DNA of 64,000 nt from Acidimicrobiales bacterium (lineage in GTDB: Bacteria > Actinomycetota > Acidimicrobiia > Acidimicrobiales > Microtrichaceae): positions 402,587 through 466,586 of the forward strand of contig JAXLRH010000002.1 of assembly GCA_046331245.1 (NCBI GenBank), read 5' to 3'. Numbering within the stretch: the first letter of the stretch is position 1; the number at the start of each line of letters is the position of its first letter. The position numbers were made by a program, and so were the translations under genes. Under the pieces are notes generated by a model that was given only the letters and a program-made list of their open reading frames with translations, was not told the origin of the DNA and did not search any database. Shown in pieces: positions 6,655 through 62,394 of the stretch.

Positions 6655-7292
6655 GCGACCAGGTCGGCGTCGCCGCGTTCGACTTCGACGGCACGATCAC
6701 CGAGCGCGACACGCTGCTCGGCTTCCTGGAGTTCGTCGGCGGACGTCGCCGGGTCGCCTCGGCGCTCGCCGCGCAGTCGCCCACGTTGGCGAGGGGCCTC
6801 CGCTCCAGCGAGGCGCGCAACACGGCCAAGGAGCGGGTGCTGGGCCAGGTGCTCCGCGGCCGCGCCGTCGACGACGTCACCGACGCCGGGATCCGCTACG
6901 CGGCCACGCTGCCCACCGGGTTCCGCCGGGAGACCCTGCAGCACATCGCTTCGCACCGCGCCGCCGATCACCGCCTCGTGATCGTGAGCGCGTCGCTCGT
7001 GTACTACCTCCGCCCGATCGCCGCCGACCTCGGCTTCGAGGACGTGATCGCGGTGGAGATGTCGGTCGGCGACGACGACCGGCTCACCGGCACCCTCACC
7101 ACCCCGAACGTGCGCCGGGAGCACAAGGCGACCCGGCTGCAAGCCTGGCTCGACGAGCGCCTGGATGGAGCGACGCCCGAGCTGTGGGCCTACGGCGACA
7201 GCTCGGGCGACGATCATCTCCTCGCGATGGCCGACCACGCGACGTGGATCGGCCGGCGGGCCCGTCGTGGGCCCGCCGTGTCGAACGACTGA
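6651..7292 (+). CDS. HAD-IB family hydrolase (phosphoserine-phosphatase-like)
   Basis: GTG start overlapping the upstream stop (GTGA). VAAFDFDGTIT motif I, then the HAD motifs ...YGDSSGD. Confidence 0.75.
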   Translation: MSDQVGVAAFDFDGTITERDTLLGFLEFVGGRRRVASALAAQSPTLARGLRSSEARNTAKERVLGQVLRGRAVDDVTDAGIRYAATLPTGFRRETLQHIASHRAADHRLVIVSASLVYYLRPIAADLGFEDVIAVEMSVGDDDRLTGTLTTPNVRREHKATRLQAWLDERLDGATPELWAYGDSSGDDHLLAMADHATWIGRRARRGPAVSND

Positions 7293-19740: not shown

Positions 19741-20161
19741 CCTGCGGCCCGAACGCGCCGATCGACCGGTAGTAGCCCTCCTGGGCGGTGAGGATCGCGA
19801 CGACCTGCTCGTCGGTGAGCTCGATGTCGGCGTCGTCGGCACGGCCCAGGATGTACGCGAGGGGCTCGTCGTCGGTGACGACCACGAGGGCGGCGTTCAC
19901 CTCGGCGTCGGTGCCGTAGGACGCGACCCCCTTCGTCTGCAGGTAGTCGAGGTGCCACAGCAGCACCTGTCGCACGTCGTCGTAGCTGACCACCGCGCTC
20001 ACCGCCGGGTCGACGTGGTCGCCCACGTAGACCACGGCGTCGTCGAGGTCGTAGACGGCCGGACGCGACTTCCCGGCCTGCTGCGCCGTGACCGATCCCA
20101 CTGCCACCGCCGCCACCACGAACGCCACGAGCGCGCTGAGCACGACGAAGATCCAGATCAC
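19715..20161 (-). CDS. hypothetical membrane-anchored acidic protein
   Basis: An N-terminal TM helix IWIFVVLSALVAFVVAAVAV is followed by a Asp-rich soluble domain. It overlaps the tam 3' end by 26 nt. Confidence 0.4.
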   Translation of the reverse strand: MIWIFVVLSALVAFVVAAVAVGSVTAQQAGKSRPAVYDLDDAVVYVGDHVDPAVSAVVSYDDVRQVLLWHLDYLQTKGVASYGTDAEVNAALVVVTDDEPLAYILGRADDADIELTDEQVVAILTAQEGYYRSIGAFGPQVTGPDDPT

Positions 20162-21404: not shown

Positions 21405-21410
21405 CGCGCA

Positions 21411-21440
21411 GGAGGCCCGGGGCTCGCGCCCCGGGCCTCC
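21411..21440. terminator. GC-rich hairpin between convergent MFS and acyl-CoA dehydrogenase genes
   Basis: GGAGGCCCGGGG-ctcgcg-CCCCGGGCCTCC is a perfect 12-bp stem 7 nt after the MFS stop. There is no U tract. Confidence 0.5.
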
Positions 21441-21503
21441 TCCGTTCCGGCGTTGAATTTCGCCCCTGTAGGGCGTCTGAGCCCGGCGGAACGGGCCGAG
21501 TGG

Positions 21504-33076: not shown

Positions 33077-33106
33077 CTATTTCCCCTACGCGCGTGAGGG
33101 AAATAG
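33077..33106. promoter_or_regulatory. AT-rich inverted repeat CTATTTCCC-N12-GGGAAATAG between flotillin stop and sufC start
   Basis: The perfect 9-bp arms are unusually AT-rich for this genome. It lies 7 nt after the flotillin stop and 10 nt before the sufC ATG. Confidence 0.4.
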
Positions 33107-33116
33107 ACTCTCGGCC

Positions 33117-33883
<767 letters not shown>

Positions 33884-33887
<4 letters not shown>

Positions 33888-35149
33888 GCGACACCGAGAC
33901 GGTCGACCCGATCGACGCGGCCACGGTGAAGGCCGACTTCCCCCTCCTCGTGAACACGAAGGCGGGCGCCGGCCACGAGCGGCCCATCGTCTACCTCGAC
34001 TCGGCGGCCACCGCGCAGAAGCCGCAGGTCGTCATCGACGCCCTCACCGACTACTACGAGACGACCAACGCCAACGTCGCACGCGGCGTGTACGAGCTCG
34101 CCGAGGCGTCCACCAACGCCATGGAGCGCGCCCGCCGCAAGGTGGCGGCGTTCATCAAGGCGCCCAGCGCGGACGAGGTGATCTTCACCAAGAACGCCAC
34201 CGAGAGCCTCAACCTCGTCGCCCACAGCTGGGGGCGTGCGAACCTCGGCGCCGGTGACGCCATCGTGCTCACCCAGCTCGAGCACCACGCGAACATCGTC
34301 CCCTGGCACATCCTCGCCGCCGATCTCGGCTTCGAGATCCGCTGGATCCCCGTCGACGACACGGGCCAGCTCGACCTGACCGACCTCGACCGGCTGCTCG
34401 ACGGCGCCAAGCTCGTCGGCCTGTCGGCCATGTCGAACGTGCTGGGCACGCTCACGCCGGTGCGCCACATCACCGACGCCGCCCACGCGGCCGGCGCCGT
34501 CGTCTCGGTCGACGCGTGTCAGTTCGTGCCCCACCTGCCCACCGACGTGGTGGCGATGGGCGCCGACTTCCTCTCGTTCTCGGCCCACAAGATGTGCGGG
34601 CCCACCGGCGTCGGCGTGCTCTGGGGCCGGGCCGAGCTGCTCGACGCGATGCCGCCGTTCCTCGGCGGCGGCGGCATGATCACGAACGTCACCCAGGAGG
34701 GGTTCACGTCCGCGGCGCTCCCCCACAAGTTCGAGGCGGGCACGCCGCCGATCGCCGAGACGGTCGGCCTCGGCGCCGCCGTCGACTACCTGTCGGCGCT
34801 CGGCATGGACGCGGTGCGCGAGCACGAGGTGCGGCTCACGTCGTACGCGCTGCGCACCCTGTCGGGCCGCTTCGGCGACAAGCTCACGATCCACGGCCCG
34901 TCGGAGCCGGCGCTCCGGGGCGGCGTCTTCTCGATGGTGCTCGACGGCGTGCACCCGCACGACCTCAGCCAGATCCTCGACGAGCACGGGGTGTGCGTCC
35001 GGGCCGGCCACCACTGCGCCAAGCCGCTCATGAAAGTTCTCGGCGTCGGCGCGACTGCGCGAGCATCGGTGTACATCTACAACGACGAGCACGACGTCGA
35101 CGCACTTGCCGACTCACTCGACGCCGCGGCGTCGTTCTTCTCGTTCTGA
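33884..35149 (+). CDS. sufS: cysteine desulfurase SufS
   Basis: ATGA overlap with sufC. PLP-lysine context FSAHKMCGPTG. Active Cys in HHCA. Confidence 0.92.
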
Positions 35150-35173
35150 ACGCATTCGAAGTAGGGAGTTCCA

Positions 35174-35674
35174 ATGGCCGGTCTCGAAGATCTGTACCGC
35201 GAGATCATCCTCGATCACTACCGCTCGCCCCGTAACCGCGGCGAGCTCGAGACCCCTCCCGCGACGCGCACCGAGGGCTTCAACCCCCTGTGTGGCGACG
35301 AGATCGTGGTGTACCTCCAGCTCGGCGCCGGCGAGGGTGACGACCGGGTCATCGAGGCCATCCGCATCGGTGGGCAGGGCTGCTCGATCAGCCAGTCGTC
35401 GGCGTCGATGATGTCGTCGGCGGTGCAGGGCAAGACCATCGGCGAGGCGCACGAGGTGATGCGTGCCTTCAAGGCCATGATGTCCATCCACGAGAGCTCG
35501 CTCGACGACAGCGCGCCCGAGGAGCCCACACCCGAGGAGATCGCCGACCTCAAGCTCGGCGATCTCGAGGCGCTGCGCGGCGTGGTGAAGTTCCCCGTCC
35601 GCATCAAGTGCGCCACCCTCTCGTGGAACACGCTCGACCAGGGCATCAAGGAAGCGGTCTCCCCCGGCGAGTAA
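35174..35674 (+). CDS. sufU: Fe-S scaffold/sulfur-transfer protein SufU (NifU-like)
   Basis: NPLCGDE...GQGCSIS...C motifs. Confidence 0.88.
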   Translation: MAGLEDLYREIILDHYRSPRNRGELETPPATRTEGFNPLCGDEIVVYLQLGAGEGDDRVIEAIRIGGQGCSISQSSASMMSSAVQGKTIGEAHEVMRAFKAMMSIHESSLDDSAPEEPTPEEIADLKLGDLEALRGVVKFPVRIKCATLSWNTLDQGIKEAVSPGE

Positions 35675-43749: not shown

Positions 43750-44178
43750 ATGGCTCACGTGCGTTCGGCAATCCTCTGCGACTTCGCCCAGGTACGAGAG
43801 GGCCTGCTGTTCGTGTCGTCCGGCGGCATCACCCGCATCGCGGCGCCCGGCATCGGCGCCCCCGTCTCGTTCTCCGTCGCCGGCGAGCTCGAGGTGCTCC
43901 CACTCGAGGCCGGCTCGACCCACGAGGTCGCCTTCAAGGTGTCGGCCGTCGAGACGTCCACCACGGTGTGGGAGGCCACGCTGTCCATCAGCACGAGCAG
44001 CTCGCCCGACGGGTTGTTCCCCGGCGAGAGCCTGCACGTGCCGTTCGCGTTCCCGGTCGGGCCGTTCGCCGCGGAGACCTTCGGGCCGCACGACCTGAAG
44101 GTGAGCATCGACAACGCCGAGACCGAGCTGCTGACCTTCTACCTGCTGCAGATGGTCACCAACGAGGACCTCACCTGA
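43750..44178 (+). CDS. hypothetical protein
   Basis: 142 aa, coding-like composition, no recognisable domain. Confidence 0.5.
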
Positions 44179-44193
44179 CCAACCCCCCCCACC

Positions 44194-44246
44194 CCGGTTT
44201 CGGGGGTTCGTTGTGCGCGAGGGTGCACAACGAACCCCGAAACCGG
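44194..44246. repeat. palindromic element copy A: CCGGTTTCGGGGGTTCGTTGTG-cgcgagggtg-CACAACGAACCCCGAAACCGG
   Basis: 21/22-bp near-perfect inverted arms with a 10-nt spacer, between convergent genes. Flanked by a C8 run upstream and (CGGGAA)3 downstream. Confidence 0.7.
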
Positions 44247-44279
44247 AGAAATGGGGAGCGGGAACGGGAACGGGCGGCG

Positions 44280-45032
44280 CTAGTCCGCGAAGGTCCAGCG
44301 CACCTCGACGGTGACCGCCGTCTGCACCTCGCCCGCCTGGATGGGCGTGGCCGCACGGTCGGCCTGCGCCGCGTAGGCCAACGGCGTGGACACCGGCGGC
44401 GTCGTCGTGTCGGTCTGTGAGATCGACACGACCTGACCGAGCTTGCGGCCCGACAGCTTCGCGAACTGCTCGGCCTTCTTCCTGGCGTCGGCGAAGGCCT
44501 TGTCGCGGGCTCCGGCGAGGGCGGCCTCGTCGTCGTCGAGGCGGAACGACACCCCCGACACGACGGCGTCGGAGCCACCGGCGGCGGTCGCCGCGTCGAT
44601 GACGGCGCCCACCTTGTCGACGGCGCGCACCTTGGCGATCACCTGGTTGGAGACACGGAAGCCGTCGGCCACCGGACCGGAGTCGGGGTACCGGAACTCC
44701 TGGTTGATCGAGTAGTTCGTGGTCTGCACGTCCTTCTCGGCGACGCCCGCCGCCTTCAACGCGTCGATGAGCTTCGTCGCCGACGTCGCTGCGTCGTTGA
44801 TCGCCGCCGGCGCGGTCGGCCGCTTGACCGACACGCCGATCGAGACGGACACGGTGTCGGGCACGCCGCTCACCTTGCCGGTGCCGGACACGACGATGCC
44901 GTGCTGGGAGCCCGAGGGATCGTTGGTCACGTTCACGACCGGAGCCTTCCCCGTCGACTGGCCGGAGCATCCGACGGCGACGAGCGCCAGGCCGGCGAGG
45001 CCGACGGAACAGACGGTGCGGATTCTGGACAT
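44280..45032 (-). CDS. SIMPL-domain (DUF541) lipoprotein
   Basis: Lipobox LVAVGCSG. SIMPL-like body. Confidence 0.8.
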   Translation of the reverse strand: MSRIRTVCSVGLAGLALVAVGCSGQSTGKAPVVNVTNDPSGSQHGIVVSGTGKVSGVPDTVSVSIGVSVKRPTAPAAINDAATSATKLIDALKAAGVAEKDVQTTNYSINQEFRYPDSGPVADGFRVSNQVIAKVRAVDKVGAVIDAATAAGGSDAVVSGVSFRLDDDEAALAGARDKAFADARKKAEQFAKLSGRKLGQVVSISQTDTTTPPVSTPLAYAAQADRAATPIQAGEVQTAVTVEVRWTFAD

Positions 45033-45099: not shown

Positions 45100-45912
45100 T
45101 CAGAGGCCGAGCGGATCGGCGAAGGGATCGGCGAACGGGTCGTCGGCGGCAGCCACGGCAGCCGGCGCGTCGTCCCCTCCGGCCTCCTCCACCCACCGGG
45201 CGTAGCCGCTCTCCTCCAGCGTCTCGGCGAGCTCCGGCCCGCCCGACTCGAGGATGCGGCCCTTGGCGAAGATGTGCACCACGTCGGCGTGCAGCTTCTC
45301 GAGGAGCCGGTTGTAGTGGGTGACCGCGATCACGCCGAGGCCCCATTCCGAGGTGGCCTCCTCGACGCGCTGCGACACCTGCGCGAGCGCGTCCACGTCG
45401 AGGCCGGAGTCGATCTCGTCGAGGATCGCGAACTTCGGGCGGAGCACGGCGAGCTGCAGGGTCTCGTTGCGCTTCTTCTCGCCACCGGAGAAGTCGACGT
45501 TGAGGGAACGGCTGAGGAACGCCTCGTCGAGACCGACGCGCTTCGCCTCGGCCCGGAGGTCGGCATCGAAGGTCGTGCCGGAGCGGTGCTGGGCGGCGAG
45601 CGACTCGGTGAGCACGGACTGGAGCGACACGCCGGGCACCTCGGTCGGGTACTGCATGCCGAGGAAGAGACCGGCCTGCGCCCGCTCGTGGGGCGCCAGC
45701 GCTGCGAGATCCACGCCGTCGAGCAGCATCGAGCCGCCGGTGACGACATAGCCGGGCCGGCCCATGAGCACGTGGCTGAGGGTGGACTTGCCCGAGCCGT
45801 TCGGGCCCATGATCGCGTGCACCTCGCCGCTGCGGACCGTGAGGTCGACGCCGGTGAGGATCGGGCGGCCCGCGACCTCGGCGGTGAGACCGGAGATGAC
45901 GAGCTCGCTCAC
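45100..45912 (-). CDS. sufC: Fe-S cluster assembly ATPase SufC (copy 2)
   Basis: GTG start VSELVISGLTAEV. EVHAIMGPNGSGKSTL, FSGGEKKRNETLQ. GTGA overlap with the Rieske gene. Confidence 0.88.
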   Translation of the reverse strand: MSELVISGLTAEVAGRPILTGVDLTVRSGEVHAIMGPNGSGKSTLSHVLMGRPGYVVTGGSMLLDGVDLAALAPHERAQAGLFLGMQYPTEVPGVSLQSVLTESLAAQHRSGTTFDADLRAEAKRVGLDEAFLSRSLNVDFSGGEKKRNETLQLAVLRPKFAILDEIDSGLDVDALAQVSQRVEEATSEWGLGVIAVTHYNRLLEKLHADVVHIFAKGRILESGGPELAETLEESGYARWVEEAGGDDAPAAVAAADDPFADPFADPLGL

Positions 45913-46238
45913 GACACCACCACCGACACGTCGTCGCCGTCGACGACGACCTCGTACACCGCGACCGGACGCGTCGCCGGCAGCGACGTCGCCTCGCCGG
46001 TCTCGAGGTCGAACCCCGAGCCGTGCTTCGGGCACTCCAGCGTGCCCATGTCGTCGTCCACCTCGCCCTCCGACAACGAGACGTCCTGGTGGCTGCAGCG
46101 GTCGGACAGCGCGTACACCTGGTCGCCGAGGCGCACCACGGCGAGCTCACGGTCGCCGATCACGAACTTGCGGACGCCGCCGTCGACGAGGTCGTCGATC
46201 GTGCACAGCGGGTGCCGGACTCCTGGGGAGACGCTCAT
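45909..46238 (-). CDS. Rieske [2Fe-2S] ferredoxin-like protein
   Basis: CSHQ...CPKHG Rieske boxes, 109 aa. ATGA overlap with sufD. GGAGG RBS. Confidence 0.85.
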   Translation of the reverse strand: MSVSPGVRHPLCTIDDLVDGGVRKFVIGDRELAVVRLGDQVYALSDRCSHQDVSLSEGEVDDDMGTLECPKHGSGFDLETGEATSLPATRPVAVYEVVVDGDDVSVVVS

Positions 46239-47524
46239 CGGGTTCCTCCGAGCTTGGCGGCGATCAACGGACGGACGAGCTCGGCCACGGACGGCACCGA
46301 CACGGCGTCGAGCACCTCCTCGAAGAAACCGTTGACGACGAGCCGCTCGGCCACCTCGGGCGGGACGCCGCGGCTCTCGAGGTAGAAGCGCTGGTCCTCG
46401 TCGATGGGACCGACGGCGGTCGCGTGTGCACAGCGGACGTCGTTGTGGTTGATCTCGAGGTTGGGCACCGACTCGGCCCAGGCGTCGTCGGACAACTTGA
46501 TGACCCGGTTGGTCTGCGTGGCGTTGGAACCACGACCCTCGTGGTCGACCCGGATCATGCCGGTGTAGACGGCGTGGGCACGGTCGTCGAGCGCCCCCTT
46601 GAACAGGAGCTCCGACGTGGTGTCGCGGGCCTCGTGCGTCTGGAACGTGCGGAGGTCGTGCATCTGGTCGTCGTCGCCGAGGTAGAGCGCCGAGAGGCGG
46701 CCCGTGGCCCCCCGCCCGACGAGGCGGCAGTCGAAGCGGTTGCGGGCGTAGGCGCCACCGAGCGCGACGTGGGCCAGCCGAACCGTCGCCTCCTGGGCGA
46801 CGGTGGCGGACAGCGCGCCGAGCTGGTTGGTCGCGCCGCCGAGCGCGTTGACGGTGGTCACGCCGACCCGGGCGGCGGGGGCCACTGCGATCTCGACGCG
46901 GGGCACGACGGTGGCCTCGACGTCGGTCGAGGTCGTCCACTCGACGACGTCGAACTGCGAGTTCTCGCCGGCCACGATCACGAGCCGGTTGAGCACGAGC
47001 GCCTGATCGGCGTCGACGACACCGATCACCTGGAACGGGAGGTCGACCACCACGTTGCGCGGCACGGACAGGAGCAGGGGGTCGACGCCGAACGCGACGT
47101 TGAGCTCGGTGAACGCGTCCACGACGGCGACGTGCTCGCTGCTGCCGACGGTGGCGGCGACCTCGGACCCGCCGAGCTCGTCGGCGGACTCCGACAGGAG
47201 GCCGAAGCGGACGCCGAGCTCGGCGATCTCGGGCGCGAGCTCGGCGCTCACGAGGTGCCCGTTGTGGTGCACGAGGCGGCCGGCGTACTTGCCGAGACCG
47301 TCCGACAGCGTGAGCGCCCCGTCGGGAACGACCTCGGACGTCGCCGGCACGGTGAAGCGGTCGAGCTCGATGTCGCCGACGCGGCTGTAGCGCCACTCCT
47401 CGAGCGAGGGATCGGGCAGCGGCGTCACCGCGAAGCGCTCGGCGGCGGCGACGCGCTGCGCCGTCAGCCAGGCAGGGCCGGGCAGGGAGCTGGCACGTGT
47501 GGGGGTGAATGCGTCGGCAGTCAC
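46235..47524 (-). CDS. sufD: Fe-S cluster assembly protein SufD
   Basis: 429 aa, SufD beta-helix with the conserved C-terminal region. Confidence 0.88.
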   Translation of the reverse strand: MTADAFTPTRASSLPGPAWLTAQRVAAAERFAVTPLPDPSLEEWRYSRVGDIELDRFTVPATSEVVPDGALTLSDGLGKYAGRLVHHNGHLVSAELAPEIAELGVRFGLLSESADELGGSEVAATVGSSEHVAVVDAFTELNVAFGVDPLLLSVPRNVVVDLPFQVIGVVDADQALVLNRLVIVAGENSQFDVVEWTTSTDVEATVVPRVEIAVAPAARVGVTTVNALGGATNQLGALSATVAQEATVRLAHVALGGAYARNRFDCRLVGRGATGRLSALYLGDDDQMHDLRTFQTHEARDTTSELLFKGALDDRAHAVYTGMIRVDHEGRGSNATQTNRVIKLSDDAWAESVPNLEINHNDVRCAHATAVGPIDEDQRFYLESRGVPPEVAERLVVNGFFEEVLDAVSVPSVAELVRPLIAAKLGGTR

Positions 47525-47600
47525 GACAGGGTTCCTGGGGGTCGAGCGGGGCCGTCGAATAAGTCCGACGGCGATAGGAGAAATCCTAGTGGGACTGGAC

Positions 47601-48066: not shown

Positions 48067-48447
48067 TCAGCCCCGACGGAACCAGCGACGCCAGCCGCGC
48101 TGGTCGCCGCCCGGGCGGCCGGGCCGGAACCCCGACGTGTCGGGACGGGTGGCGTCCACCTCGGCCCGCGTGCGCTCGACGGCGGCGTTCACGATGTTCT
48201 CCGCCTCGTCGAGGAGGTCGCCGATGGACGGATCGACCCCGACGCTCGCGGGCTCGGCCGGCGTCGGCGGAGCGATCAGCGAACCGTGCGACCAGTTCAC
48301 GTCCGCGAGGCGCGGCTGATAGGCGGGGCAGTTGTCGGGGCAGCGCCACGGCGCCTCCGGGGCGAGGTCGAGGTCGCATTTCCGCACGGACTCACCCGTG
48401 GGATAGGTGCGGCTCTCGTAGAACTTGCATCCCTCGCGCATCGGCAT
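48067..48447 (-). CDS. small Cys4 protein of unknown function
   Basis: MPMREGCKFYESRTYPTGESVRKCDLDLAPEAPWRCPDNCPAY carries a C-x16-C-x11-C-x3-C pattern. Ends 13 nt upstream of the EVE gene. Confidence 0.55.
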   Translation of the reverse strand: MPMREGCKFYESRTYPTGESVRKCDLDLAPEAPWRCPDNCPAYQPRLADVNWSHGSLIAPPTPAEPASVGVDPSIGDLLDEAENIVNAAVERTRAEVDATRPDTSGFRPGRPGGDQRGWRRWFRRG

Positions 48448-48469
48448 CGAGCCATTGTAGGTTTGCGCG

Positions 48470-48853
48470 ATGCCCTCCCTCGGATCGCCCCGCTACGTCC
48501 TGTTCACCAACTTCCGGAGGAACGGGACGCGGGTGTCGACGCCGGTGTGGTTCGCGCCGCACGGTGACACGTGGGTGTTCTCGACCGCGCCGGATGCCGG
48601 CAAGGTGAAGCGGCTCCGCAACAACCCGGCGGCCGAGATCGCCGCCAGCGACGTCCGGGGTCGCGTGAAGGAGGGCTCCCCCACCTTCACCGGCACGGCA
48701 CGACTGCTCGACGCCACCGAGACCGCTGCGGCCGAGCGCGCGCTGGCCGCGAAGTACGGACTCCAGTGGAAGGCGCTGCGCCTCAGCGAGCGGGTGCGCA
48801 ACCTCGTCGGCATCAAGGCCGACGCCGCCTACATCTCGGTCACGCTGGACTGA
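48470..48853 (+). CDS. PPOX-class (pyridoxamine-5'-phosphate-oxidase fold) probable F420-dependent enzyme
   Basis: 127-aa split-barrel PPOX pattern (YVLFTNFRRNGTRVSTPVWF...). Confidence 0.7.
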   Translation: MPSLGSPRYVLFTNFRRNGTRVSTPVWFAPHGDTWVFSTAPDAGKVKRLRNNPAAEIAASDVRGRVKEGSPTFTGTARLLDATETAAAERALAAKYGLQWKALRLSERVRNLVGIKADAAYISVTLD

Positions 48854-48920: not shown

Positions 48921-50318
48921 TCAGCCCACGCTGCCTTCCATCTGAAGCTCGATCAACCGGCTCCACTCCACCGCGTACTCCATGGGGAGTGTGCGGGTGA
49001 TCGGCTCGATGAAGCCGTTCACCACCATCGACATGGCCTGCTCCTCGGAGAGGCCACGGCTCTGCAGGTAGAACAGCTGCTCGTCGGCCACCTTGGAGAC
49101 GGTGGCCTCGTGGCCGATCACCGCGTCCTTCGAGCCCACCTCCATGTAGGGGTAGGTGTCCGAGATCGACTCGTCGTCGAGGATCAGGGCGTCGCACTGC
49201 ACGTGTGAGCGGCAGCCGTACGCACCGTCCTCGATGTGGACGAGGCCGCGGTACGACGTGCGGCCGCCGTCCTTGCTGATCGACTTCGACACGACCTTCG
49301 ACGTCGTCTCGGGCGCGGCGTGCACCATCTTGGCGCCCGTGTCCTGGTGCTGGCCGGGGCCGGCGTAGGCGACGGAGAGCACCTCGCCCGAGGCCTTCGG
49401 TCCGACGAGCGTGCAGCCCGGGTATTTCATCGTGAGGCGGCTGCCGATGTTGCCGTCGATCCACTCCATGTGGCCCTCGGCCTCCACCCGCGCACGCTTG
49501 GTGACGAGGTTGAACACGTTGCTCGACCAGTTCTGGATGGTCGTGTACGTGACACGCGCCGACGGCTTCACCACGATCTCGACCACGGCCGAGTGCAGCG
49601 AGTCCGACGTGTACACCGGGGCGGAGCACCCTTCGATGTAGTGCACCTCGGAGCCCTCGTCAGCGATGATGAGCGTCCGCTCGAACTGGCCCATGTTCTC
49701 CTGGTTGATCCGGAAGTAGGCCTGCAACGGCATCGGCACCTTCACGCCCGGCGGGACGTAGATGAACGAGCCGCCCGACCACACGGCCGTGTTGAGCGAG
49801 CTGAACTTGTTGTCGTTGAGCGGGATGACCGTGCCGAAGTACTGCTTCACGAGCTCGGGGTACTCGCGGAGCGCCGTGTCCATGTCGCAGAAGATGATGC
49901 CGAGCTCGGCGAGGTCCTCGCGGTTGCGGTGGAACACCACCTCGCTCTCGAACTGCGCGGTCACGCCGGCGAGGTACTTCCGCTCCGCCTCCGGGATGCC
50001 GAGCTTCTCGTAGGTCGACTTGATGGCGTCGGGCAGGTCGTCCCAGCTGTCGACCTGATGATCGGTGGGCTTGATGTAGTAGTAGATGTCGTCGAAGTAG
50101 ATCTCCGACATGTCGCCGCCCCAGCGCGGCATCGGCCGCTTCTCGAAGGCGGTGAGCGACTTGAGGCGACGCTTCAGCATCCACTCGGGCTCGTTCTTCA
50201 TCTGCGACATCTCGCGGACCAACGCCTCGTCAAGGCCCTTCTTGGGCTTGAAGACGTAGTCGACGTCGTCGTTCCAGCCGAGCTGGTACTTGCTGAGGTC
50301 GAGATCGATGCTGGTCAT
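48921..50318 (-). CDS. sufB: Fe-S cluster assembly protein SufB
   Basis: Inner start [15 protein letters not shown]. The remainder is colinear with SufB. The ORF-table N-terminal 47 codons lie in the leader/repeat region. Confidence 0.92.
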
Positions 50319-50434
50319 GGCACTCCAATCGGGGGGAGAGCCGACGCCTCGCCGGGGCCGGGAATATCTCCTACGTGCATAGTAACAACCCCAACCCGCG
50401 CACGACCACCGGTGTTCCCGCCCACCTCTCTCGC

Positions 50435-50486
50435 GGTTTTTGGGGTTCGTTGTGTTCACCCCTCGCGCACAACGAACCCCAAAACC
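50435..50486. repeat. palindromic element copy B (inverted relative to A): GGTTTTTGGGGTTCGTTGTG-ttcacccctcgcg-CACAACGAACCCCAAAACC
   Basis: 19/20-bp arms. Its reverse complement is about 90% identical to copy A including the spacer. It lies in the sufB leader, about 115 nt upstream of the sufB ATG, just after the upstream gene stop. Confidence 0.7.
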
Positions 50487-50521
50487 CGAGGAGGAGGAGT
50501 GAGGAGTGAGGACGAGGAGTG
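50487..50521. repeat. purine-rich heptad tract (GAGGAGT-like x5)
   Basis: GAGGAGGAGGAGTGAGGAGTGAGGACGAGGAGTG between palindrome B and the stop of the gamma-carbonic-anhydrase-like gene. Confidence 0.5.
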
Positions 50522-51040
50522 TCAGTCGACGCGTCGGAGCTCGAGCTTGTAGCGGGCGGCGCGATCGACGTAGCTCTGCACGCCGAGGTCGAACCAGCCG
50601 GGCGTCACGGCGTTCTCGCGGATGGTGATCGGCACGCCGAGCGCCATGGCGAGGGGCGGGATCACCTTGCGGTTGGGCACCATCGCGTTGGCGCCGATGA
50701 CCGCCTCGGCGCCCACCACCACCTCGTGCAGCACCACCGAGCCCGAGCCGACGAGCGCCTTGTCCTCGATCGTGCAGCCCTCGAGGTGGACGTTGTGGCC
50801 CACCGTCACCTCGTTGCCGATGCGGGTGGGATGGAAGAACGTGGTGTGCACGATCGTGCCGTCCTGCACCGACGACCGCTCGCCGACGTAGATGAAGCCG
50901 TCGTCGCCGCGGAGCACCGCCGTGGGCCAGATCGACGAGTGGGCGCCGATCACGACGGAGCCGATGATCACCGCGTCGGGGTGCACGTAGGCGTCGGGAT
51001 GGATGTCGGGAACCTGGTCACCCAGGGCGTAGATCGGCAC
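50522..51040 (-). CDS. gamma-carbonic-anhydrase/hexapeptide-repeat family protein (PaaY/CaiE-like)
   Basis: Left-handed beta-helix hexapeptide repeats, 172 aa. Confidence 0.85.
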
Positions 51041-53052: not shown

Positions 53053-53139
53053 TGTCGTTCAACCACGGACTACCCGCCACGACCTCCGGCGAGACGGTCG
53101 GGGGTTCGTTGTCGGTGGTCACCACTAGTGTCTGCACCC

Positions 53140-62344: not shown

Positions 62345-62394
62345 GTTTTGTACCTCGGATCGACCGGCGAGCCGGTCGATCCGGGGTACAAAAC
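62345..62394. terminator. 50-bp near-perfect palindrome between convergent genes: GTTTTGTACCTCGGATCGACCGGC-ga-GCCGGTCGATCCGGGGTACAAAAC
   Basis: 24-bp arms with a single mismatch, 10 nt after the acyl-CoA dehydrogenase stop. It shares the GTTTTG/CAAAAC termini with palindromes A and B but has a different core. Confidence 0.55.

Follow-up and report, generated by a model that had tools for sequence, protein, structure and literature searches.

The sufB spacer and the split suf cluster

We have analyzed the DNA upstream of sufB in a stretch of 64,000 nucleotides (nt) from an Acidimicrobiales bacterium (contig JAXLRH010000002.1), which we call the window; this 64-kb window is the coverage of the genome. 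sufB is preceded by a 203-nt spacer containing a long palindrome (palindrome B), a purine tract and, closer to the gene, an AT-rich segment. The original prediction placed all of these in the spacer and regarded the palindrome as a possible control device for iron-sulfur (Fe-S) homeostasis. Each is present where it was placed, on the minus strand along with the genes, and it is the AT-rich segment that proves to be the conserved element that matters. The genes concerned are as follows.

48921-50318, minus strand: sufB (TIGR01980, 713.8 bits against a cut-off of 346.4)
50319-50521: spacer of 203 nt between the hexapeptide-repeat gene and sufB, both on the minus strand
50522-51040, minus strand: hexapeptide-repeat, gamma-carbonic-anhydrase-like gene (Pfam Hexapep)
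46235-47524, minus strand: sufD (Pfam SUFBD_core), with a GTG start at 47524, heading the second suf transcription unit
45909-46238, minus strand: Rieske ferredoxin gene (Rieske-type matches), following sufD in the second unit
about 45100-45900, minus strand: sufC, the last gene of the second unit, placed by tblastn synteny
33117-35674, plus strand: sufC2-sufS-sufU, the third suf transcription unit

The suf genes of the window are thus split into sufB, sufD-Rieske-sufC and sufC2-sufS-sufU, in units ~10-15 kb apart and with two sufC paralogues. The third unit comprises sufC2 at 33117-33887 (SufC family, TIGR01978, 317.5 bits), sufS to 35149 (Aminotran_5) and sufU at 35174-35674 (NifU_N). The gene upstream of sufB had been described as resembling gamma carbonic anhydrases. 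The top NCBIfam matches of its product agree with this, being gamma carbonic anhydrase, PaaY and CaiE, all under their cut-offs. It is the last gene of an MBL-SnoaL-flavin reductase-hexapeptide run, and palindrome B lies at its 3' end. Read along the direction of transcription, the spacer has a CACTCCT-like pyrimidine tract, the palindrome, a purine-rich stretch, the AT-rich block TTGTTACTATGCACGTAGGAGATATTCC, the GGAG Shine-Dalgarno sequence of sufB (50323-50326) and the ATG.

The nearest relatives by SufB are metagenome-assembled genomes of Acidimicrobiales and Microthrixaceae, with identities up to 94% (relative P0001), and a protein listed from an Acidimicrobiales metagenome-assembled genome is 100% identical to one of the window. 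Relatives have the genes in the same order, MBL-flavin reductase-hexapeptide protein-SufB-(four-cysteine protein)-SufD-Rieske-SufC, and the synteny of the hexapeptide gene is kept in loci L013-L016 and others. For comparison we used 80 sufB loci from metagenomes, in which SufB is 71-89% identical, together with the relatives L013 and L014 (SufB 94% and 92% identical to that of the window, and the hexapeptide gene-sufB order retained) and the window itself. This gave ~78 usable upstream regions, with SufB identities of 71-94% across the set.

A conserved box upstream of three suf units

The AT-rich segment TACTATGCACGTAGGAGATATTCC was confirmed at about 50362-50385. It is part of an imperfect palindrome of 26-29 bp, located ~50-70 nt 5' of the sufB ATG, that we term the suf box. 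Searches with a position-weight matrix (PWM), and with a scan for the symmetric consensus scored out of 22 matches, place three copies in the window.

50362-50390, minus strand: suf box 1, GGTTGTTACTATGCACGTAGGAGATATTC, predicted operator overlapping the predicted sufB promoter (PWM score 42.2)
47557-47585, minus strand: suf box 2, GATTTCTCCTATCGCCGTCGGACTTATTC, 33 nt 5' of the sufD GTG (47524), 17/22 consensus matches
33079-33104, plus strand: suf box 3, ATTTCCCCTACGCGCGTGAGGGAAAT, 13 nt 5' of the sufC2 ATG (33117), 16/22 matches

The conservation of the sufB copy is observed directly. Its halves in the window are TTGTTACTAT-N4-GTAGGAGATAT (50362-50390), and 74 of the ~78 sufB upstream regions contain (A/G)TTGTTACTAT-N4-RTAGGAGAAAT or close variants of it. 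The distance from the box to the start codon of sufB ranges from 33 to 115 nt across the related loci. The box is kept whichever gene lies upstream, be it that for the hexapeptide protein, alpha/beta hydrolase, prolyl oligopeptidase, YchF or methylmalonyl-CoA mutase. The secondary copies, at sufD and sufC2, are nearly perfect palindromes and therefore reveal the symmetric consensus, ATTTCTCCTAT-N4-ATAGGAGAAAT.

The distribution of the box is also specific. There are three matches at ≥16/22 (at least 16) in the window, each upstream of suf genes, and none was found in 200 Markov-1 simulations. Taking the window and the loci together (685 kb), nearly all matches at ≥15/22 (at least 15) lie upstream of sufB, sufD or sufC2. 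Boxes at sufD are also found in L013 (14041), L014 (11809), L017, L019, L020, L022, L047, L054 and others, and L014 has a counterpart of the sufC2-sufS-sufU box at 19994. A literature search with the motif string returned irrelevant papers only, and no description of the suf box was found. We think it probable that the box is a suf operator, strongly conserved and not described before, that overlaps the promoter of sufB and is one of three such sites.

The overlap with a promoter is seen in the asymmetry of the sufB copy. This departs consistently from the symmetric consensus, with TTTCTCCTAT changed to TTGTTACTAT, i.e. TGn followed by TAnnnT, which is an extended -10 sequence. TGnTAnnnT is present in the left half of 55 of 69 sufB boxes, compared with none of the 16 secondary boxes. 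In the window the extended -10 is TGnTACTAT, with TG at 50386-50387 and TACTAT at 50379-50384, and among the boxes of the window only the sufB copy has it. From its position we infer a transcription start near 50372 and a 5' untranslated region (UTR) of ~54 nt. The corresponding RNA (50373-50319) is predicted to fold no better than shuffled sequences (z = +0.7), and the promoter is predicted to lie downstream of the palindrome, so the idea of a structured sufB leader is not confirmed. At sufC2 the sequence TAGACT (33104-33109) is followed by 7 nt and the ATG, such that the -10 abuts the box; this suggests that the transcript is leaderless. At sufD the left edge of the box falls within a TAGGAT hexamer.

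The arrangement at sufB indicates a repressor operator overlapping the promoter. A dimeric repressor bound to the box would cover both the -10 and the transcription start, and RNA polymerase would be blocked. Repression is the natural reading because of this expected coverage. The same box precedes each of the three suf units, lacking the -10 signature at sufD and sufC2, and for that reason a single regulator could control them all.

The symmetry of the box might alternatively arise if it acted as RNA, as a 5'-UTR hairpin that controls translation or mRNA stability. It can be drawn as a hairpin of 14-15 bp with a 4-nt loop. Columns 7 and 34, which form one of the outer pairs, are A-T in some boxes and G-C in others; a purine (R) precedes TAG, so that U-A or U-G pairing is possible; and AGGAG in the right half resembles a Shine-Dalgarno site. 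In some boxes the left flank is in addition complementary to the N4 spacer, but this is sporadic and was given no weight. Yet across 69 boxes 74.5% of the cells of the putative hairpin are paired, compared with 72.7% in shuffles, and there are two conserved mismatches. Since pairing barely exceeds that of the shuffles, the symmetry reflects conserved sequence and not compensatory change. The extended -10 of sufB would also place the transcription start inside the box there, leaving just half of the box in the transcript, which counts against an RNA element. A DNA operator is favored because several boxes are palindromic through their centers, leaving no loop (CTATCTAGATAG), because the distance to the start codon varies so widely, because the box is present at three different promoters and because the box region has no match in Rfam at gathering thresholds. 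Rfam covariance models gave nothing at gathering score over the whole window, and a search of 50250-50600 gave spurious microRNA-hairpin matches only (E up to 1). We consider control by an RNA hairpin in the box to be quite unlikely.

A second conserved block, GGCACYRCNCYACTTTGCC, is found ~60-100 nt 5' of the box in L058, L062, L073, L076, L077, L083, L085, L088 and L091. In the lineage concerned, sufB and a prolyl oligopeptidase gene are divergently oriented.

Candidate regulators of the suf box

To our knowledge, sufR is generally located directly upstream of sufB in Actinomycetes. The observation that no sufR is adjacent to sufB in the window was upheld and extended: tblastn with a bona fide Tsukamurella SufR (L097:1722-2453, taken from a sufR-sufB locus) gave no match in the 64-kb window or in the ~80 related loci. 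The upstream neighbors of sufB differ from locus to locus and all encode enzymes. In the many loci inspected, no transcription factor was seen among the open reading frames (ORFs) 5' of sufB or among those that separate sufB, the four-cysteine gene and sufD. The neighboring ORFs examined with Pfam encode alpha/beta hydrolase, prolyl oligopeptidase, YchF, Peptidase_C26 (glutamine amidotransferase-type), epimerase and methylmalonyl-CoA mutase, and further ones judged by eye are enoyl-CoA hydratase-, acetyltransferase- and HAD hydrolase-like. Pfam scans of the small unannotated ORFs of the window revealed no DNA-binding protein, neither Rrf2 nor ArsR genes turned up in the scanned parts of the window, and no paper connecting SufR with Acidimicrobiia was found in the literature.

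The published core of the SufR site in Synechocystis and S. avermitilis is CAAC-N6-GTTG, and the site footprinted in M. tuberculosis is ATTTTGTCACACT-N5-TGTGAAAAT (10.1101/2020.08.10.245365). According to a cryo-electron microscopy preprint, SufR uses an AT-hook to recognize chiefly the A/T tracts on either side, with low specificity for the core (10.64898/2025.12.26.696629). The sites upstream of sufR in our collection are AATTAGGAAACAATCGTGTTGTGAAATA (Tsukamurella) and AATTACGGCACACTGATGTTGTGAAAAA (Nonomuraea). An outer frame of AATT-N19-AAA(T/A) is common to the suf box, the Tsukamurella and Nonomuraea sites and the M. tuberculosis footprint, although in the sufB box of the window the left outer tract is degenerate (GGTT). 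SufR (COG2345, a [4Fe-4S] protein of Actinomycetes and Cyanobacteria) provides a close comparison in terms of architecture: a palindrome at a suf promoter, the same A/T-tract frame and implied repression. The differences are the core, the lack of sufR adjacent to sufB or within 64 kb, and the presence of three operators for a split cluster where SufR has a single site upstream of a sufR-sufBDCSU operon.

Because the outer AT tracts (AATT-N19-AAAT) are spaced as in known SufR operators, our leading candidate, tentatively, is a SufR-like (COG2345) Fe-S sensor encoded at an unlinked position. With a little less conviction, we consider it possible that something other than SufR binds the box. This might be an Rrf2/IscR-like or ArsR/MarR-type regulator whose gene lies at another place in the genome, or a new factor, for instance the four-cysteine protein whose gene lies between sufB and sufD. 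A different family (Rrf2 or ArsR, for example) could act here because the core of the box is unlike all the SufR cores published. Moreover, no sufR is found near the suf genes in the ~80 loci, whereas it is directly upstream of sufB in the Tsukamurella and Nonomuraea records. Set against a non-SufR regulator are the identity of the outer frame with that of SufR operators and the lack of an Rrf2 or ArsR gene in the scanned parts of the window. IscR (Rrf2) of Proteobacteria is comparable in that one Fe-S-sensing dimer acts at ~25-bp palindromes overlapping the promoters of several Fe-S units; it differs in that no Rrf2 gene was seen here. Neither the type 1 nor the type 2 IscR motif of the literature is known to match the suf box in sequence or in CC/GG spacing.

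The four-cysteine protein deserves separate consideration.

48067-48447, minus strand: conserved four-cysteine protein of 126 amino acids, encoded between sufB and sufD and present in most of L013-L095

It has invariant cysteines C7, C24, C36 and C40, a conserved LADVNW motif, a proline-rich linker, a confidently predicted C-terminal helix and a basic GWRRWFRR tail. The protein, of ~120 amino acids in the related loci, has >6000 homologues. Among the 120 of these listed, the named ones are called hypothetical and none has a precomputed Pfam domain, and the protein itself has no Pfam, NCBIfam or PDB match. That it is encoded in most related suf clusters and belongs to no known family could favor it as the new factor. 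However, the AlphaFold2 model, with a mean predicted local distance difference test score of 62, is of low confidence, including the cysteine domain, and contains no helix-turn-helix, and the gene in the window has its own leaderless-looking promoter that lacks a box. The protein is an intriguing though weak candidate for the regulator because its model is of low confidence and without a DNA-binding fold. As a regulator in its own right it was set aside on these grounds, together with the lack of conservation of the GRP motif in its C-terminal tail and the absence of known relatives. It may be an uncharacterized factor in Fe-S assembly or sensing. A broader possibility is that in Acidimicrobiia the sufR beside sufB has been replaced by an undescribed Fe-S-sensing regulator of ATTTCTCCTAT-N4-ATAGGAGAAAT, perhaps the four-cysteine protein or a partner of it; this we think unlikely.

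The start of the four-cysteine gene lies in a short divergent region. At 48448-48472 there is TACAAT, 6 nt and then the ATG, a leaderless-looking arrangement, and the start is 22 nt from that of a divergent PNPOx-like gene. The latter (48470-48853, plus strand) is antisense and lies between sufB and the four-cysteine gene, as an insertion relative to the closest relatives.

A repeated hairpin in the sufB spacer

The other prominent feature of the spacer is the palindrome. Its parts, and those of a second copy in the window, are as follows.

50435-50487, no strand assigned: core of palindrome B (53 nt), with 20-nt arms at 50435-50454 and 50468-50487 and a 13-nt loop
50414-50498, minus strand: full repeat unit of palindrome B, with a pyrimidine-rich 5' flank, the hairpin and a GAGA..GCGGGAAC 3' flank
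50488-50521, plus strand: purine tract (GAG / GAGGAGT-like), reading CACTCCT-like on the transcribed strand
44186-44265, plus strand: palindrome A, a paralogous copy (hairpin -46.9 kcal/mol, z = -9.2)

The arms of palindrome B are complementary at 19 of 20 positions, and can be extended to 37 nt at 78% complementarity. As RNA the predicted folding energy is -45.4 kcal/mol (z = -7.7), and none of 200 shuffled sequences was as stable. The purine heptad tract that had been described is real but weak, scoring 39-47 in Tandem Repeats Finder (default threshold 50) with a period of 3 or 13, and no more than two exact GAGGAGT units stand side by side. The stem is lengthened by pairing of the tract with the purine-rich stretch on the 3' side of the hairpin.

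Palindrome A is ~6 kb away, between the convergent genes for DUF6941 (43750-44178, plus strand) and SIMPL (44280-45032, minus strand), both assigned by Pfam. Local alignment of copy A (plus) with copy B (minus) gave a score of 81 over ~85 nt including both flanks, compared with 46 in the opposite orientation. The window has only these two copies and a 12-13-nt fragment at 53101. The closest relatives lack them. Between the hexapeptide gene and sufB, L013 has a spacer of 134 nt and L014 one of 102 nt, compared with 203 nt in the window, and both are without palindrome, purine tract or any significant hairpin; the palindrome is also missing at their sufC-DUF6941 junctions, as is the SIMPL gene. 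Fuzzy searches and blastn-short found no copies in the ~80 related loci. A scan of the genome collection with the palindrome arm gave unrelated hairpins only (a Chloroploca/Oscillochloris family and ordinary Rothia and Microbacterium terminators), and a loop-anchored pattern scan of metagenome contigs gave no match. Palindrome B with its flanks (50414-50521) is best read as a recent, lineage-specific insertion of an ~85-nt repeated hairpin where the upstream operon ends.

The repeat unit begins 24 nt past the stop codon of the hexapeptide gene, and palindrome B is ~45-100 nt 5' of the sufB -10. Since it is upstream of the -10, palindrome B should be outside the transcript from the sufB promoter. 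If it acts at all, this is most likely as a 3'-end hairpin, which could stabilize the upstream transcript, or end it without a U tract and so insulate sufB from read-through. No U tract follows, so that palindromes A and B, and another at 62345-62394, are not canonical intrinsic terminators; a terminator scan at palindrome B found only a 6-bp chance hairpin inside an arm. The copies resemble repetitive extragenic palindromic (REP) sequences and bacterial interspersed mosaic elements (BIMEs), and the 'I-shaped' mycobacterial gene-end hairpins that lack a U tract, in being stable, GC-rich imperfect palindromes just past stop codons. They are also like REP/BIMEs in being repeated in the genome and missing from the orthologous sites of relatives. 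They differ from REP sequences in having no conserved GTAG head and just two copies, and in lacking a U tract, so that termination is uncertain.

The original suggestion was that palindrome B is a DNA operator or RNA hairpin that controls sufB by Fe-S status. Its stability and its position directly upstream of sufB made this attractive, the arms contain GTTG and CAAC, recalling the SufR core, and the two copies bracket the suf cluster. However, the tetramers run GTTG-N17-CAAC and not CAAC-N6-GTTG. The palindrome is missing from the spacers of relatives with 92-94% identical SufB and no copy was found in the other related loci, while the suf box is kept in 74 of ~78, and copy A stands where two convergent genes meet, neither of them connected with suf regulation. 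Both outcomes that the original prediction named as refuting it are seen, in so far as can be judged from sequence: the predicted promoter is a conventional one located 3' of the palindrome, and the architecture resembling a SufR operator is in a different part of the spacer, the AT-rich box. A Fe-S-specific role of palindrome B is not supported; we regard it as very improbable, and this lead can be closed. We give even less credence to the notion that the suf cluster is carried by a mobile or recombining unit (composite, invertible or excisable) whose ends are palindromes A and B. The copies are in inverted orientation, bracketing 44.2-50.5 kb with sufB-sufD-sufC, and each adjoins a lineage-specific insertion (the SIMPL gene in one case, the enlarged spacer in the other). 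Yet gene order and orientation in this segment are unchanged in relatives that lack the palindromes, and no transposase or recombinase was seen in it by Pfam. The suf genes serve an essential housekeeping function, and one of their units, the third, is not within the bracketed region.

Taking the two elements together, we think it likely that the spacer combines a suf operator with an unrelated inserted hairpin. Several observations weigh against this interpretation. A generic sigma-70 scan that requires a -35 element found no site, and the promoter assignment is based only on sequence pattern and conservation in an uncultured Acidimicrobiales lineage. The tblastn search for SufR was negative throughout the window and the ~80 loci, and the core of the box, CTCCTAT-N4-ATAGGAG, is unlike the published CAAC-N6-GTTG and ACACT-N5-TGTGA. 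With regard to the hairpin, the stem of palindrome B is followed by CCGCGAGAGAGG where a U tract would stand in a terminator. With just two copies seen, within 64 kb, a genome-wide dispersed repeat is no more than putative. That these copies bracket the suf cluster we take to be coincidence, although it could be meaningful.

Acidimicrobiia are a class of Actinomycetota that is widespread but for the most part uncultured, and the suf box gives them a clear cis-regulatory signature of Fe-S biogenesis that can be tested. Placed upstream of sufB, sufD and sufC2-sufS-sufU, and merged with the extended -10 at sufB, the predicted operator of 26-28 bp would define the suf regulon in this lineage. It enables prediction of the regulon in metagenome-assembled genomes, annotation of Acidimicrobiia and a search for the unlinked regulator, whether SufR-like or otherwise, and it opens the question of how a split suf cluster remains co-regulated. 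In kind, a repressor operator is ordinary; the interest lies in the unlinked cognate factor and the use in annotation.

Some further observations concern hairpins and gene insertions. The SIMPL (DUF541) lipoprotein-like gene (44280-45032, minus strand), which adjoins palindrome A, follows sufC and is an insertion relative to the closest relatives. Other long hairpins of the window, at 62345-62394, 21407-21444 and 7168-7215, all lie between converging ORFs. That at 62345-62394 is a near-perfect palindrome with 24-bp arms (GTTTTGTACCTCGGATCGACCGGC / GCCGGTCGATCCGGGGTACAAAAC; -48 kcal/mol, z = -10), with a GTTTTG...CAAAAC stem base and pyrimidine-rich and G-rich flanks like those of palindromes A and B. 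The fragment at 53101-53113, GGGGTTCGTTGTC, is a 12-13-nt match to an arm of palindrome B (blastn-short E = 0.4), a remnant or a chance match, in the spacer between a divergent MBL gene and a long plus-strand ORF. The Chloroploca/Oscillochloris repeat family (L001, L003-L005, L009-L012) has the form TTTTT-GGTTCGTTGTG-GCGGCGAAGCCGC-CACAACGAACC-AAAAA. It has an 11-nt arm in common with palindrome B, which is probably a coincidence of the search pattern.

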